Shown: positions 28,047 to 48,001, counted from the stretch's first letter. The stretch is DNA of 64,000 bases from Anaerolineales bacterium (GCA_019454165.1 CP075367.1:1278805-1342804); one strand, 5' to 3'. The notes: generated from the sequence alone by a model not told the origin. Translations and numbers: made by a program.

Positions 28047-29168
28047 ATGCTTATACCCGTTCGGAATGACACAGGCGCGAGGGTGTATCATCTCCACATG
28101 ACCAATATCCCATCTCTGCTCGCCAAACAGCCCAATACCGCCACGGAGAATATCAGCCTCATCTACGCCCCCACGCTGGCCGGGCAGTACCATCCCACCT
28201 TTCCGCCGCACATGCCCGCCCTTGTTCACGGCATTGACTCCGCTGAGCTACTGGCCAAAGTACAGAACCTGCTTATGCTTGTCTATCCCGCTTCGCACGC
28301 CATCCACCTGGGCACCGAAGAGATCACATTAGCAGACCTCTTGACCAGGCAACCGAGCGACTATCCTGCCAGCCTCTACATCCCAGCCCTTGGTCCCAAC
28401 ACCTCGCTCGAGGAGTTTCAGGAGCTGATTGCTCACCTGCGCGCTCCGGATGGCTGCCCCTGGGATAGGGAGCAGACCCATCAGAGCCTGCGCCGTAACC
28501 TGATCGAAGAGACCTATGAGGTGGTCGACGCGCTGGATGCCAATGACCCCACGGCCATGCAGGAGGAGTTCGGCGATCTGATGGTGCAGGTGGCCCTGCA
28601 CGCTCAGATCGCCAGCGAGGCCGGCGAGTTCCGCATGGCGGATGTGCTGCATGGCATCATCACCAAGCTGATCGCTCGTCACCCGCACGTCTTCGGCGAC
28701 GTACAGTTGGGCGATGCCGAAGCGGTCATCGCCAACTGGGAGAACCTGAAAGCGGCCGAGCGCAAGCAGCAGGGCACTGAGAAGGGCTTGCTGGACGGCG
28801 TATCGGCGGCGTTGCCGGCCCTCAGCCAGGCTGAGGCCTATACGACCCGTGCGGCCCGGGTGGGCTTTGAGTGGCCGAATATTGAGGGCGTGCTGGGCGA
28901 TGTGGCCGAGGAGATCCAGGAATTCCGCGCCGAGGCGGCCGGTTCGGCTGAGCAGGAGGCCGAGTTCGGCGATATTTTGTTCGCGTTGGTGAACTTATCG
29001 CGCTGGCTCAAGATCGACGCCGAGGCGGCGTTGCGGGCAGCCAACGCACGCTTCCGCAAACGCTTCGCGTTTGTGGAAGCAGGGGCGCGGGCGCAAGGGC
29101 GCCCGCTAAGCGAGCTGAGCCTGGAGGAGATGAACGCGCTGTGGGAGGCGAGCAAGAACAGTAACTAA
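28047..29168 (+). CDS. MazG-family nucleoside triphosphate pyrophosphohydrolase (tandem MazG domains) with a ~130-aa N-terminal region of unclear origin
   Basis: CPWDREQTHQSLRRNLIEETYEVVDALD...EEFGDLMVQV forms MazG domain 1, and EFGDILFALVNLSRWLKID forms domain 2. The start is uncertain (ATG 28047 or ATG 28098). Confidence 0.85.
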   Translation: MLIPVRNDTGARVYHLHMTNIPSLLAKQPNTATENISLIYAPTLAGQYHPTFPPHMPALVHGIDSAELLAKVQNLLMLVYPASHAIHLGTEEITLADLLTRQPSDYPASLYIPALGPNTSLEEFQELIAHLRAPDGCPWDREQTHQSLRRNLIEETYEVVDALDANDPTAMQEEFGDLMVQVALHAQIASEAGEFRMADVLHGIITKLIARHPHVFGDVQLGDAEAVIANWENLKAAERKQQGTEKGLLDGVSAALPALSQAEAYTTRAARVGFEWPNIEGVLGDVAEEIQEFRAEAAGSAEQEAEFGDILFALVNLSRWLKIDAEAALRAANARFRKRFAFVEAGARAQGRPLSELSLEEMNALWEASKNSN

Positions 29169-29659
29169 CTTTCGTCAACGATTGTTACTTGAGTGATCGC
29201 TGATGTGGGTATTGCTTCAGGATACCAAACCTCGAAAACTGGTATGCAAAACTTATGATCAGGATAGTTTGGAGGATTCGCGCTCTCTGGTATTAATTTA
29301 GCAGCAAGAAAATGCTTATCTAGTTTAAGGGTAACAGCGTCTGACTTTAGAAAGAAGTTATCAAACTTCCAATAATCGAAAGGGAGTATTGGTAAGTTCT
29401 CTTCGGTAAAACTGAATAGCGCAATGTATTTGTTTTGATTTGCAAAACTTTGCGGATATCTTGCTTGAATCTTGCCAAAATTAGGTTGGATAAAACCTTC
29501 TTGCGTAATTAACGCATAGCGTTCCTTGGTAGTGCAATGATAGATTCCAGGACCAAGGTATTCTTTTTGAAAGCGGGAGAATTCGCTTTTGCGGAAATTC
29601 TCTTGAGTGAGTTGCAAGTACTCGTTTTCCTCTTGTCGGTTTTGGAAAAAATGTCCCAA
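29165..29659 (-). CDS. Orphan 164-aa protein on a low-GC cassette. It may have an ADP-ribosyltransferase-like (H-Y-E) fold, but the function is unknown.
   Basis: The 165-codon ORF lies in ~33-40% GC DNA, where stop codons should be frequent. The TTG start is 12 nt after the uvrA-like stop, with a weak GAGAG SD. Motifs are GIYHCTTKERYALITQEGFI, KYIALFSF and FEVWYPEAIPTSAITQVTI. There is no internal Met, TM segment or signal peptide. Confidence 0.6.
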   Translation of the reverse strand: MGHFFQNRQEENEYLQLTQENFRKSEFSRFQKEYLGPGIYHCTTKERYALITQEGFIQPNFGKIQARYPQSFANQNKYIALFSFTEENLPILPFDYWKFDNFFLKSDAVTLKLDKHFLAAKLIPESANPPNYPDHKFCIPVFEVWYPEAIPTSAITQVTIVDES

Positions 29660-29671
29660 AGCAGACTCTCA

Positions 29672-31903
29672 CTAAATATACTTACTCGTGATCGAGCCCT
29701 TAGCCTTCTTCAACTCGGCCGGCGTGCCCTCGAACAGCACCTGGCCGCCGCGGCTGCCGCCTTCGGGACCCATGTCAATGATCCAGTCGGCGTTGCGCAC
29801 CACGTCCATGTTGTGCTCGATCACGATCACCGTGTTGCCGCCGTCCACCAGGCGGTTGATGATCTCCAGCAGGTGAGCGGTGTCCGACATGTGCAGGCCG
29901 GTGGTCGGCTCGTCCATCACGTACAGACTGCCTTCCTTGTGCAGCTCGCTGGCCAGCTTGATGCGCTGGCACTCGCCGCCCGATAGCGTGTTGAGCGGCT
30001 GGCCCAGTTTGAGGTAGGTCAGGCCCACATCGCTCATTGCCTGCAGGCGGCGCGTGATCTCGGGCTGGGTGAAGTGCGCCAGCGCCTGCTGCACGGTCAT
30101 CTCCAGCACATCCGCGATCGATTTGCCGTCCAGCTTGTAGGCCAGCACCTCATCCTTGAAGCGCTTGCCGTTGCAGATCTCGCAGGGCGACTTGACCACA
30201 TCGAAGAACGATAGGTCGGTATACACCACGCCCAGGCCCTGGCAGTTCTCGCAGGCGCCTTTGGAGTTGAAGCTGAACAGGCCCGCATTTACCTTGTTGG
30301 CGGTGGCGAACGCCTTGCGGATATCGTCCATGATGCCGGTGTAGGTTGCCGGGTTGGAGCGCGAGTTTGCGCCCACCGCCGACTGGTCGATCACGATGGC
30401 TTCCGGGTAAGCTTCGACGAAGGCCTGGTTGATGAGCGAGCTCTTGCCGGAGCCGGCCACGCCGGTCACCACGGTGAACACGCCGGTGGGGATGTTGACG
30501 CTGACCTTCTTGAGGTTATTGACATTCACATTGCTCAGCTTGAAGTGCTTCTTGGCCGAACGGAACTCTTTCTTGATGGGTAACTTTTGGGTCAAGTGAC
30601 TGCCGGTCAACGTATTGGCCTTCAGCAGGCCGGCATAGCTGCCCTGGTAGACGATCTCGCCGCCCTGGCTGCCCGCCTTCGGCCCCACGTCAATGATGTG
30701 GTCGGCGATCTCGATCACATCCGGGTCGTGCTCGACCACCAGCACCGTGTTGCCCTTGTCGCGCAGCTTTTGCAGCATCTCGTTTAGGCGATGCACATCC
30801 CGCGGGTGCAGGCCGATGCTGGGTTCGTCGAAGACGAACATCACATCCACCAGGCTGCTGCTCAGGTGCTTCACCATCTTGATGCGCTGCGACTCGCCGC
30901 CCGAGAGCGTGTCAGTCTCGCGGCTCAGGGTCAGATATTGCAGGCCAATGTCCACCACGTGCTGCAGGCGCTCGACTAGGCTCTGCAGGATGGGCTTGGC
31001 CACCGGGTCCTTGATGCCCTTGAGCACGGTGATGAGTTCGCCCACTTCCATGGCAGCCATATCGGCAATGTTGTAGCCTTCGATCTTGCAGCCCAGCACG
31101 GCCTTGTTGAGGCGCGCCCCCTTGCATTCGGGGCAGGGGCCTTCTTCCAAATACGGCGCCACTTGTTTCTGCGTGCGCTCGGAGAGCGCCTTCAGGTCAC
31201 GCTTGATGTAGGAGTTGGAGAACTTGAGGATGATGCCTTCGTAGGTGGCCTTGAATGCGCCCATACTGACCTTGCGGCCTGAGCCGTACAGCAGCAGCTC
31301 GAGCTCGTCCTTGGTGTACTTGGAGAGCTTCTTGTCATTGTCGAAGAAGCCACTGGTCTGGTACAGGCCGACCCAGCTGCCGAAACCCGGCACGCGGATC
31401 GGGCCTTCGTTCAGCGACTTGCTCATGTCGAGGATCTTGTTGATCGCCGGCTGCAGCTTGCGGCCGAAGCCGTTGCACTCCGGGCACATGCCGGCCGGGT
31501 CGTTGAACGAGAAGGCGTTGGAGTAGCCCACGAACGGCTTGCCGACGCGGGAGAACAGCAGGCGCAGCGCGGTGTAAATATCGGTGATCGTGCCCATGGT
31601 GGAGTGCGAGCCGCCGCCCAGGCGCTTCTGGTCCACCACGATCGCCATGCTCAAGTTCTCGATCGAGTCCGCATCCGGCTGCGAATAGCGCGGCAGGAAG
31701 TTGCGCACGAACATGCTGAAGGTTTCGTACAGCTGGCGCTGCGCCTCGGTGGCCAGCGTATCGAATACGATGGATGATTTGCCCGAGCCAGAGACCCCGG
31801 TGAAGATGGTGATCTGGTCCTTGGGGATGCGGACGTCAATGTCCTTCAGGTTGTTTTCGCGCGCACCGCGGATCTGAATAAAGTCTTGTCTGGCTTCAGG
31901 CAT
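29672..31903 (-). CDS. UvrA paralog (class II/DrrC-like ABC ATPase lacking the UvrB-binding domain)
   Basis: 743 aa from the ATG at 31903 (AGAGGAA SD); the track ORF extends spuriously to 32005. Two ABC modules are present (GVSGSGKSS/LSGGESQR and GVAGSGKSS/LSGGECQR). Zinc modules are CPECNGFG, CPECKGARL and CENCQGLG...CEICNGKRF. It is about 200 aa shorter than canonical UvrA. Confidence 0.9.
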   Translation of the reverse strand: MPEARQDFIQIRGARENNLKDIDVRIPKDQITIFTGVSGSGKSSIVFDTLATEAQRQLYETFSMFVRNFLPRYSQPDADSIENLSMAIVVDQKRLGGGSHSTMGTITDIYTALRLLFSRVGKPFVGYSNAFSFNDPAGMCPECNGFGRKLQPAINKILDMSKSLNEGPIRVPGFGSWVGLYQTSGFFDNDKKLSKYTKDELELLLYGSGRKVSMGAFKATYEGIILKFSNSYIKRDLKALSERTQKQVAPYLEEGPCPECKGARLNKAVLGCKIEGYNIADMAAMEVGELITVLKGIKDPVAKPILQSLVERLQHVVDIGLQYLTLSRETDTLSGGESQRIKMVKHLSSSLVDVMFVFDEPSIGLHPRDVHRLNEMLQKLRDKGNTVLVVEHDPDVIEIADHIIDVGPKAGSQGGEIVYQGSYAGLLKANTLTGSHLTQKLPIKKEFRSAKKHFKLSNVNVNNLKKVSVNIPTGVFTVVTGVAGSGKSSLINQAFVEAYPEAIVIDQSAVGANSRSNPATYTGIMDDIRKAFATANKVNAGLFSFNSKGACENCQGLGVVYTDLSFFDVVKSPCEICNGKRFKDEVLAYKLDGKSIADVLEMTVQQALAHFTQPEITRRLQAMSDVGLTYLKLGQPLNTLSGGECQRIKLASELHKEGSLYVMDEPTTGLHMSDTAHLLEIINRLVDGGNTVIVIEHNMDVVRNADWIIDMGPEGGSRGGQVLFEGTPAELKKAKGSITSKYI

Positions 31904-31975
31904 GGTTCCTCTTGATTTTGGGTCTGGACAGGGGGAGAAGTTTACCCGCTTTGTTGGGGAGGGCGACCCCGAATC

Positions 31976-32007
31976 CCTTGACAGCCAGCGTGCGCTGGCT
32001 GTCAAGG
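31976..32007 (-). promoter_or_regulatory. Perfect palindrome between the DUF1801 gene and the uvrA paralog (hairpin or operator; each arm contains TTGACA)
   Basis: CCTTGACAGCCAGCG-TG-CGCTGGCTGTCAAGG has 15-nt arms and starts 2 nt after the DUF1801 stop codon. Confidence 0.5.
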
Positions 32008-32009
32008 CG

Positions 32010-32492
32010 CTATTTGCCGGTCTTGGCTGAATTCAGGCGCACGCCGCCTTGCACCAGTGCGGTGAGGGCGGCTTTGTCTACGCTGCCATCTTCGGGGAAG
32101 TCGATGGCGCGTACGGAACTGCTGTCCAGGCGGGCGTTGAACAGCTTCTTGGGGTCTTTCAGTTGCTTGCCCTTGTGGAAGTTGATGCGCACGGAAGTCT
32201 TGAGCACATCCGCATGGCACACGATGCCATTGTGCGACCACACAATCACGCCTTCAGGCTTGGAGGGCATCTTCCATTTGACCTCTTCCAGCAGGGCCGG
32301 GTCGGCCTTGCTGATGATGGCGCGCAGCTCGGTCAGCTTCTTGCCCTTCCAGCCCTCGGCCTTTTTGATGATGGCGTTGATCTCGCTGGCGCTGGCTTTG
32401 ACGCCGGCCGCCGCCCTTTTGGCCGCCGGCTTGCGGGCGGCTGGCTTTTTCGCCGCCGGTTTTCTAGCGGCCGCCTTCTTCTTGGCTGGCAT
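32010..32492 (-). CDS. DUF1801 (YdhG-like) domain protein with a Lys/Ala/Pro-rich histone-H1-like N-terminal tail
   Basis: 160 aa from the ATG at 32492: MPAKKKAAARKPAAKKPAARKPAAKRAAAG, followed by ...LLEEVKWKMPSKPEGVIVWSHNGIVCHADVLKTSVRINFHKGKQL. Track ORF 32010..32576 has a spurious extension. Confidence 0.75.
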   Translation of the reverse strand: MPAKKKAAARKPAAKKPAARKPAAKRAAAGVKASASEINAIIKKAEGWKGKKLTELRAIISKADPALLEEVKWKMPSKPEGVIVWSHNGIVCHADVLKTSVRINFHKGKQLKDPKKLFNARLDSSSVRAIDFPEDGSVDKAALTALVQGGVRLNSAKTGK

Positions 32493-32944
32493 TAGCCTAA
32501 CGCCTTCTTGATCAGCTTGGTGATCTTGGCTTCCTCGGTGGGCGTGATCTTGGTCAGCGCGAAGGCGTTGGCCCACAGGTTGCCGTCATCCAGCTTGGCC
32601 AGGTCGCTGAAGCCCAGGGTGGCATAACGCGTGCCGAATTTCTCGGCCGGCTGGAAGAAGAAAATGTTCTTGCCGTCCCTATTGGCGTAGCCGGGCATGC
32701 CGTACCAGGTCTTGGGCAGGATGTCCGGTGCGATCTCCATGATGATCTCGTGCAGACGTTTGGCCATGGCGCGGTCGCTGGCGGGCAGCTTGTCAATGGC
32801 GGCCAGCAGGTCCTTCTCGCTCTTGGCCTTGTCGTTGCCGTACTTCTCTTGCGCCTTCAGTTCGCGGGCGCGTTCTTTCATCGCGGCCATTTCTTCAGCG
32901 GTGAAGCCGCTGCTGTTCTTGGTGGTTTTCTTTTTAGCGGGCAT
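32492..32944 (-). CDS. DUF1801 (YdhG-like) domain protein
   Basis: 150 aa with AAGGAGG RBS. KTWYGMPGYANRDGKNIFFFQPAEKFGTRYATLGF is typical of the family as I recall it. Confidence 0.75.
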   Translation of the reverse strand: MPAKKKTTKNSSGFTAEEMAAMKERARELKAQEKYGNDKAKSEKDLLAAIDKLPASDRAMAKRLHEIIMEIAPDILPKTWYGMPGYANRDGKNIFFFQPAEKFGTRYATLGFSDLAKLDDGNLWANAFALTKITPTEEAKITKLIKKALG

Positions 32945-39194: not shown

Positions 39195-39208
39195 GCTGCT
39201 ACGCCACC

Positions 39209-39247
39209 AAAAAACAGGCTGCGGTTAACCGCAGCCTGTTTTGGTTT
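39209..39247 (+). terminator. Rho-independent terminator after the DinB-family gene
   Basis: AAAAACAGGCTGCGG-TTAA-CCGCAGCCTGTTTTGGTTT. Confidence 0.85.
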
Positions 39248-39348
39248 AAAGCTCGCTTGGGGAATGGGGAGAAGGGTGGGGCCGGTTGTGTTTTTGCCCC
39301 TCCGGTTCACTGTTTTCCTGCTCACTACTCCCTTTTATGTTCATAATT

Positions 39349-39368
39349 TCACAATATTGTGATATAAT
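39349..39368 (+). promoter_or_regulatory. Perfect 14-bp palindrome TCACAATATTGTGA fused to a TATAAT box
   Basis: The palindrome is at 39349-39362, immediately followed by TATAAT at 39363-39368, in a locally AT-rich stretch ~50 nt upstream of the 39417 ORF. Confidence 0.55.
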
Positions 39369-39416
39369 GCACATGTAGTAATCAACCGGTTTCGCCTTAG
39401 GGAAAGGAAGGTTGCC

Positions 39417-47816: not shown

Positions 47817-47889
47817 GCTATAAGCCGTCAGCTTTCAGCTGTCAGCTATTCAACAAAAACCTAAAGCTTTTAAGTGCCTGCCGATATAG

Positions 47890-47915
47890 TGTCATCCTGA
47901 GCGAAGCGAAGGATC
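47890..47915. repeat. Solo half-copy of the dispersed repeat (GTCATCCTGAGCGAAGCGAAGGATCC)
   Basis: It matches the arm consensus seen at 46394-46419 (in reverse complement) and at 27934-27960. Confidence 0.65.
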
Positions 47916-48001
47916 CTTATAGAGTTGAACTTTGTGCTCTTTGTGCCTTTTTGCCTTTGTGGTTAAGCCTTTCTCAAATTGGTATTATCATCTTTCACTC
48001 T

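Follow-up and report, generated by a model that had tools for sequence, protein, structure and literature searches.

What is a lone AT-rich gene doing at the 3' end of a UvrA-like gene, and do the two work together? The question arises in a 64,000-nucleotide stretch of DNA from an Anaerolineales bacterium (GCA_019454165.1, CP075367.1:1278805-1342804), hereafter called the window, in which a small open reading frame (ORF; 29165..29659, minus strand) lies between a convergent mazG gene and a gene for a UvrA paralog (uvrA2). An earlier note had seen in this ORF a foreign cassette encoding an orphan protein with ADP-ribosyltransferase (ART)-like motifs, and had proposed that it is functionally coupled to the UvrA-like neighbor. 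The explanation that we favor, with somewhat more confidence than doubt, is that of a horizontally acquired single gene encoding a stand-alone ART-fold protein of a new family, which is carried as mobile cargo, plays a role in genetic conflict, and stands beside the UvrA paralog only incidentally.

We compared the composition of the gene with that of its surroundings. The G+C content of the ORF was 0.388, whereas that of the whole window was 0.626; the two adjacent genes, uvrA-like and mazG, stood at 0.607 and 0.620, respectively. In a 300-nt sliding profile across the window (mean, 0.626; standard deviation, 0.049), the island reached a minimum of 0.37, about 5 standard deviations under the mean. 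It is thus indeed the only strongly AT-rich stretch of the window, as the earlier note had stated, with nothing else as low. The hand counts behind that statement were also right, since 60-nt lines with 24, 20, and 21 G+C exist and positions 29701-29760 hold 43/60. The remaining 300-nt windows below 0.50 G+C (0.44 to 0.48) were centered at 39195-39416 and 47817-47950, on stretches lying between ORFs of 80 amino acids or more. Two tight junctions noticed earlier proved to be as claimed: the stop codon of the ORF (TAG, minus strand, 29165-29167) overlaps that of mazG (TAA, 29166-29168), and 12 nt separate the uvrA-like stop from the TTG start of the ORF. A stop-free stretch of at least 164 codons arose with a frequency of 5e-5 in 20,000 shuffles of the island, indicating that the ORF is more than a product of chance.

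The limits of the island were drawn by comparison with insert-free relatives, namely, the three closest Anaerolineales metagenome-assembled genomes (MAGs; L015 to L017), whose UvrA paralogs are 80 to 84% identical to that of the window. The low-GC gene was missing from all three. Two of them, L016 and L017, retain the convergent mazG, with spacers of approximately 340 and 650 bp to uvrA2 that contain REP-like repeats, so that this junction is variable even without an insert. In DNA alignments of the window with L016 and L017, homology ends about 5 nt beyond the uvrA2 stop and restarts at the MazG codons W-E-A-S-K, which places the island, of about 510 bp and without assigned strand, at approximately 29157..29666, where it replaces the native mazG-uvrA2 spacer. 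Target-site duplications and terminal (inverted) repeats were sought at the island ends, and none were found. The idea of a single-gene foreign cassette between native genes is therefore supported. The claim that the compositional break falls inside the last uvrA-like codons, the insert having rewritten the UvrA C terminus, did not hold. Indeed, the last five codons and stop (AGT AAG TAT ATT TAG) are identical at the DNA level in the window, L016, and L017, and the protein ends in the same residues (...FEGTPAELKKAKGSITSKYI*) in the window and in all three relatives. Judged from these sequences, the UvrA paralog is untouched by the insert and its C terminus is native. It is the tail of mazG that differs, the protein ending in KNSN* in the window versus KRQ* or KRGQ* in the relatives, and the alignments indicate that the insert changed two or three codons at the end of this gene. 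As for the native spacer itself, the REP-like repeats GTCATTCCGAGCGCAGCGAGGAATCCGT and GTCATTGCGAGCGTAGCGAAGCAATCCCC were seen in L017:6460-6900 and L016:6400-6600.

We then asked whether the 164-amino-acid product has relatives. Started from the single sequence, searches of Pfam, PADLOC, NCBIfam, PHROGs, and PDB were of no use, and a word-indexed protein search retrieved nothing beyond the query, which comes from an Anaerolineales MAG; with the family profile, the latter search returned five proteins. By contrast, when 1.84 billion cluster representatives were searched exhaustively with HMMER, 102 proteins were recovered at E <= 1e-3, 12 of them at E <= 1e-10, so that the protein is not the orphan it had been taken for. 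Most homologues are 160 to 240 amino acids long; those with names are all hypothetical proteins from Aminicenantes, Gemmatimonadales, and Planctomycetaceae MAGs, and the others come from metagenome contigs. An alignment of 89 sequences (columns counted out of 87 or 89) defined the signature G-x-x-H-x-T-S ... G-x-I-x-P-N ... [YF]-P-Q-S ... L-F-D-F ... L-I-P-N ... I-P-x-V-E-x-W-Y-P-x-P-I-P. Of the three residues H41, Y78, and E143 that the earlier note had picked as a possible H-Y-E triad, the first and the last proved to be highly conserved (H41, 83/87; E143, 88/89, the remaining one being Asp), and Y78 did not (44/89). Conservation was similarly high for T43 (80/87), D83 (86/89), and W145 (83/89); among the aromatic columns, F82 and F84 are near-invariant, and [YF]68 is kept in 67/89. 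The central strand KYIALFSF, which had also been singled out, corresponds to the invariant LFDF motif of the family. A Pfam scan of the 89 members yielded one match to DUF952 (E = 0.005) and one to PARP (E = 0.27), and a screen of the longer members for domain fusions found a DUF2934 tail in one of them and nothing else. What is new is thus a separate, uncurated family of about 100 clusters and approximately 160 to 230 amino acids that is covered by no curated library, within the already known ART superfamily.

The fold assignment came from structure prediction. AlphaFold2 without an alignment gave an unusable model (pLDDT, 31.7), and with the family alignment it gave one that was confident over the full length (pLDDT, 93.6; pTM, 0.87). 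Among the 50 PDB matches listed by Foldseek, ranks 1 to 28 were all ART-fold proteins, and the top 12 had probabilities of 0.9 to 1.0. They were led by CC0527/DUF952 (E = 9e-4; TM-score on target, 0.64) and by Tpt1/KptA from several species (from 1.4e-2), and further ones included DarT1 (5.6e-2), the DarT1, Thermus, and Mycobacterium tuberculosis DarT matches together spanning 0.06 to 0.5, as well as pertussis toxin S1, heat-labile enterotoxin (LT), and SPN. In BFVD, the matches included several uncharacterized proteins of Bacillus phage G, for which 10 or more ARTs have been reported (PMC9503650), along with a DarT and a putative RNA 2'-phosphotransferase, both from phages. At the sequence level, the family profile gave two weak matches in all among PDB sequences, the ART toxin Tre23 and Tpt1 (E = 0.068 over 28 residues), the latter pairing the HxT of the family with the LIHGT of yeast Tpt1 (7yw4). 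The ART-like fold suspected from the motifs is thereby well supported by the model.

Three conserved motifs lie on strands of this model, which begins with about 37 residues forming two helices ahead of strand 1. H41-C42-T43 (29531..29539, minus strand) falls in strand 38-44 and, by conservation and by the Tpt1 motif alignment, would be the strand-1 H-x-[S/T] motif, which in ARTs contacts the NAD+ ribose (PMC8120803). L81-F82-S83-F84 (29408..29419, minus strand) is the invariant LFDF strand (model, 79-84), in which the window protein carries Ser for Asp. E143-V144-W145 (29225..29233, minus strand) opens the fifth strand (model, 143-146), where members of the H-Y-[EDQ] clade have their catalytic residue (PMC7955679), and this makes E143 a candidate catalytic Glu. 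By analogy with these motifs, we infer that H41, T43, and E143 serve catalysis and that the protein uses NAD+.

We next compared the family with the ART families that it most resembles. DUF952/CC0527 (PF06108; PDB 2O0Q), the best structural match, is likewise small, single-domain, and stand-alone, with a strand-1 H-x-[S/T] and a sporadic distribution (PMC8120803). It belongs, however, to the H-H-h type, with a hydrophobic residue where the new family has E143 (PMC8120803), and the new family adds the two N-terminal helices, LFDF, and E-x-W-Y-P; the DUF952 model touches only 1 of the 89 members. The likeness to the RNA 2'-phosphotransferase Tpt1/KptA (PF01885) concerns the NAD+-binding lobe (8tfz, E = 1.4e-2) and the HxT aligned to LIHGT. 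The N-terminal winged-helix lobe and the R-H-R-R tetrad of Tpt1 (PMC8120803) are not found in the new family, which has the fifth-strand Glu instead and no Arg column conserved at 90% or more. DarT (PF14487/DUF4433), which in DarTG systems ADP-ribosylates thymidine in ssDNA, shares the ART fold (DarT1 8baq and Thermus DarT 7omx, TMq of 0.44 to 0.45) and a tie to phage defense or mobile DNA, and the Glu that serves catalysis in it is E160 in the Thermus aquaticus enzyme (PMC8120803). The window protein is nevertheless shorter than the solved DarT chains (196 to 223 residues), and its Foldseek E values for 8baq and 7omx are 0.06 to 0.2. Membership in the DarT or Tpt1 family, suggested earlier from motif resemblance, was not borne out: none of the 89 members matched PTS_2-RNA (PF01885), none matched the DarT model at E <= 1, the window protein did not match the latter at E <= 10, and hhalign of the family alignment against Escherichia coli KptA gave a probability of 7.8%.

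To establish the gene itself, we examined its start and its upstream region. The ORF was confirmed as a TTG-started, 164-amino-acid frame without any Met codon (29165..29659, stop included), in keeping with the earlier remark that the product has no internal Met; the assignment is backed by homologues, AlphaFold2, and Foldseek. The closest homologue (P0002; 39% identity) aligns with the window protein from residue 1, for which reason we prefer this start. Residues 1 to 14 match the N terminus of P0002 and were confidently modeled as part of a helix. The corresponding GenBank protein, P0001 (KF701_06515), has 150 amino acids, starting at an internal TTG at codon 15 and leaving out region 29617-29659, and on the grounds of these sequences its start is probably too short, the 164-amino-acid one being better. 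No sigma-70-like promoter was found on the minus strand. Together with a start 12 nt past the uvrA2 stop, this suggests that any expression would occur by read-through from uvrA2.

If the gene were coupled to the UvrA paralog, the two should be found together elsewhere. When 185,579 species genomes were scanned with the UvrA paralog, 80 loci (L015 to L094) were returned, none of which had an ART homologue within 4 kb. Conversely, there was no UvrA gene in any of approximately 18 distinct homologue neighborhoods (the contigs of P0002 and P0003 being too short to be read in this way). The functional pairing is thus contradicted from both sides, and the adjacency looks accidental, a neutral insertion at a convergent junction. 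We also looked for other partners. An all-against-all comparison of neighbors in 17 contexts, including the window, revealed no recurrent gene, and Pfam hits to macrodomain, NADAR, or ARH were absent among the annotated neighbors, those of L095 to L107 having been scanned in part. The island is too small for a second gene, and the neighbors of the window ORF are MazG, the UvrA paralog, two DUF1801 proteins, AHSA1, and ArsR, so that the earlier note was right to see no macrodomain (DarG) partner. In this the new family differs from DarTG, as it has neither a macrodomain or NADAR hit nor a recurrent neighbor in the contexts examined.

Some of the neighborhoods do point to mobile DNA. Hallmarks of mobile elements were present in 6 of the approximately 18: L010 has an integrase, an HNH protein, and a resolvase; L105 an integrase; L109 a resolvase; L110 a weak TerL hit and AAA_25; and L111 ParA, an excisionase-type helix-turn-helix protein, a resolvase, and an integrase. 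In the sixth (L006:3992-8464), the homologue directly follows an Argonaute (Piwi) and DpnII/MboI-like nuclease pair, with an integrase adjacent and a 49-amino-acid ORF next, which looks like a defense-island setting. Furthermore, the homologue gene was AT-richer than its flanks by 0.075 to 0.167 in 6/9 loci. The family thus behaves as solitary cargo of integrative elements and variable regions.

Several further observations were made in these neighborhoods. In a Gemmatimonadales MAG (L010:8921-9970), the homologue is preceded on its own strand, at a distance of 31 nt, by a gene for a 349-amino-acid Vpar_1526 (PF28206) protein. No other candidate for an operon partner turned up, and this one does not recur in the other contexts examined. 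On three soil contigs (L003:263-838, L004:263-838, and L005:3595-4167), a 190-amino-acid protein without a Pfam match is encoded divergently from the homologue, but as it is identical across the three, we treat them as a single context, which gives no support to a partnership. No gene was called over about 2.8 kb downstream of the homologue on a metagenome contig of low GC (L013:10375-13234). At L009:2238-8309, an imuA-imuB-DUF6504-dnaE2 SOS mutagenesis operon runs toward a homologue of opposite orientation, which lies at its end, and another homologue lies 1.1 kb from lexA (L003:2734-3357). A link of the family to the SOS or DNA damage response was considered and rejected as coincidence, since it would concern 2 of the approximately 18 contexts plus the window, with different genes each time, the operon in L009 being merely convergent.

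The class of the UvrA paralog (29672..32005, minus strand) also matters here. It matched TIGR00630 with 784 bits, and its best PDB match was Ecm16 (7SH1), aligned in one stretch (7.6e-224), followed by Deinococcus radiodurans UvrA2 (2vf7, 9e-156); alignments to canonical UvrAs were split in two. At about 743 amino acids, it is some 180 shorter than the 924- to 943-position UvrA profile, and its residue 163 aligns to profile position 266. Its architecture is that of a class II UvrA (Ecm16/UvrA2 type), in which the UvrB-binding domain is not found. Ecm16 and UvrA2 both lack it; the echinomycin resistance given by Ecm16 requires none of UvrA, UvrB, UvrC, and UvrD, and Ecm16 fails to complement UvrA (PMC10192343). 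Unlike the situation of Ecm16, no biosynthetic cluster for an intercalating antibiotic stands beside the window paralog, whose neighbors are DUF1801, AHSA1-like, and ArsR genes. The argument from excision repair of DarT-type lesions concerns canonical UvrA and not the Ecm16/UvrA2 class.

Taken together, we picture the history and role of the gene as follows. It would have been acquired horizontally from elsewhere as a single-gene island, from a family whose members appear to travel on integrative elements, in prophage-like regions, and in defense islands in several phyla, with no fixed partner. The landing site would be the 3'-3' junction of mazG and the Ecm16/UvrA2-type gene, where the native spacer was presumably replaced without disruption of anything essential, and the gene, if expressed at all, would depend on transcription from uvrA2. 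H41 and T43 would bind NAD+, and E143 would activate the ribose C1'' for ADP-ribose transfer. The role would be an NAD+-dependent modification of a nucleic acid, a small molecule, or another non-protein target in genetic conflict. We take a nucleic acid or small molecule to be the most likely target because Tpt1, DarT, and DUF952 act on nucleic acids or on proposed non-protein substrates.

A number of points weigh against this picture. No homologues were found in GenBank phages and PLSDB plasmids (tblastn) or in two IMG/VR scans, so the case for mobile cargo rests on metagenomic and MAG neighborhoods. TM-scores to known ARTs are modest (TMq of 0.35 to 0.46; overall, 0.35 to 0.64), ties at the sequence level are weak, the best E value being 0.068, and the placement of H41, D83, and E143 in an NAD+ pocket is inferred from strand position and motif analogy. 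To our knowledge, the known ART toxins that act on nucleic acids come with an antidote. None was seen here, which speaks either against toxicity or for some other form of regulation. Finally, the window protein is the sole one among the 89 with Ser at position 83, and it ends 4 residues past the last strand, most homologues being 20 to 70 residues longer (P0002 by 24). The two features suggest that this copy is possibly attenuated and, going by the alignment, they may even leave it inactive, although the tail is also missing from some other family members.

This last point leads to the strongest of the alternatives, which we nevertheless consider unlikely, namely, that the gene is in decay, in which case it would be the only cargo gene left of a mobile element since lost, either unexpressed here or catalytically dead. 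The D83S substitution at a near-invariant position, the early end of the protein, the TTG start without any Met codon and without a promoter of its own, and the failure to find mobile-element genes nearby in the window would all suit such a history. Yet a 164-codon frame has stayed open in AT-rich, stop-prone DNA (P = 5e-5), every other motif is intact, the model is confident over its full length, and the short C terminus is shared with other members. The next alternative in weight, and a distinctly less probable one, keeps the ART fold and changes the chemistry, making the protein an Arr-like antibiotic-modifying enzyme or a non-catalytic sensor of NAD+ or ADP-ribose. It draws on the best structural match, since antibiotic inactivation has been suggested for CC0527 (PMC8120803), and a solo gene without an antidote would suit a non-toxic enzyme. 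The neighbor is a UvrA paralog of the drug resistance type, and two homologue loci have ABC exporters at a distance of about 3 kb. Rifampin ADP-ribosyltransferase Arr was, however, not among the 50 listed Foldseek PDB matches, the family has neither the tetrad nor the N-terminal lobe of Tpt1, an invariant Glu is a usual feature of transferases but not of the H-H-h group, and the mobile-element and defense-island contexts suit conflict systems better.

The coupling advanced by the earlier note, in which a DarT-like DNA-ADP-ribosylating toxin would pair with an adjacent UvrA paralog that senses or repairs its adducts, with no DarG, ranks below both and seems to us very improbable. An ART fold with DarT among the structural matches, a 12-nt gap implying cotranscription with the uvrA-like gene, the failure to find a macrodomain gene nearby, and the handling of DarT lesions by excision repair in E. 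coli (PMC7003065) had made it attractive. It is largely refuted by the absence of linkage in either direction; in addition, uvrA2 and mazG are arranged alike in the closest relatives, where the gene is missing and the UvrA C terminus is the same as in the window, no family member matches DarT in Pfam, and the paralog is of the Ecm16/UvrA2 class. Last in weight comes an assembly artifact, a chimeric join placing foreign low-GC DNA between native genes, which we find barely credible. The source is a MAG, and the GC step is abrupt, with ends that lack repeats, but the island sits within a 2.24-Mb contig with native sequence on both sides, and exactly the spacer is replaced, both flanking genes keeping in-frame stops, which would be rare for a random chimera.

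For this locus, the outcome is mainly corrective, in that the toxin-repair coupling is unsupported and the placement is best read as a neutral insertion. The family could matter beyond it. DNA- and RNA-modifying ART-fold enzymes such as DarT and Tpt1 are a fast-growing theme in phage defense and toxin biology, and DarT2 is already in use as a genome-editing tool (PMC13368585). A compact family with a confident model, clear motifs, a mobile DNA setting, and no antidote gene is thus a tractable place to look for a new substrate or mode of regulation. It is conceivable, if rather a long shot, that the family is a new class of ADP-ribosylating enzymes which stand alone on mobile elements, have no antidote, and use a catalytic set of their own (H-x-T, the LFDF Asp, and E-x-W), acting on nucleic acids as effectors of phage defense or anti-defense. 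In the strongest version of this idea, the window copy, read through from the gene for an Ecm16-like ATPase, could work with that DNA-scanning ATPase on modified DNA.

Some minor observations concern the flanking genes. The listed UvrA ORF (777 amino acids) probably overruns, the likely start being the ATG at 31903 (M35, MPEARQDF...) and the extra region 31903-32005; the paralogs of the relatives begin with MAEAKQEF... or MAQATQEH.... The UvrA paralog is 67 to 73% identical across Chloroflexota, Paenibacillus/Brevibacillus, Bacteroidota (Dyadobacter and Chitinophaga), Planctomycetota (Zavarzinella), and others, and such high identity across phyla suggests frequent horizontal transfer of the Ecm16/UvrA2-type gene. 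On the other side of the island, the convergent mazG (28047..29168, plus strand) encodes a nucleoside triphosphate pyrophosphohydrolase (Pfam MazG, 2.2e-30; PRK09562, 304 bits). Its listed ORF (373 amino acids) probably also overruns, with a likely start at the equivalent of V14 (VYHLHMTN...) and an extra region at 28047-28085. Beyond the UvrA paralog, positions 32010-32944 of the window hold tandem DUF1801 genes (188 and 150 amino acids), whose listed ORFs overlap by 85 nt, and these are followed by AHSA1/SRPBCC and ArsR regulator genes. The first DUF1801 protein carries a Lys/Ala-rich, histone-H1-like N-terminal tail.

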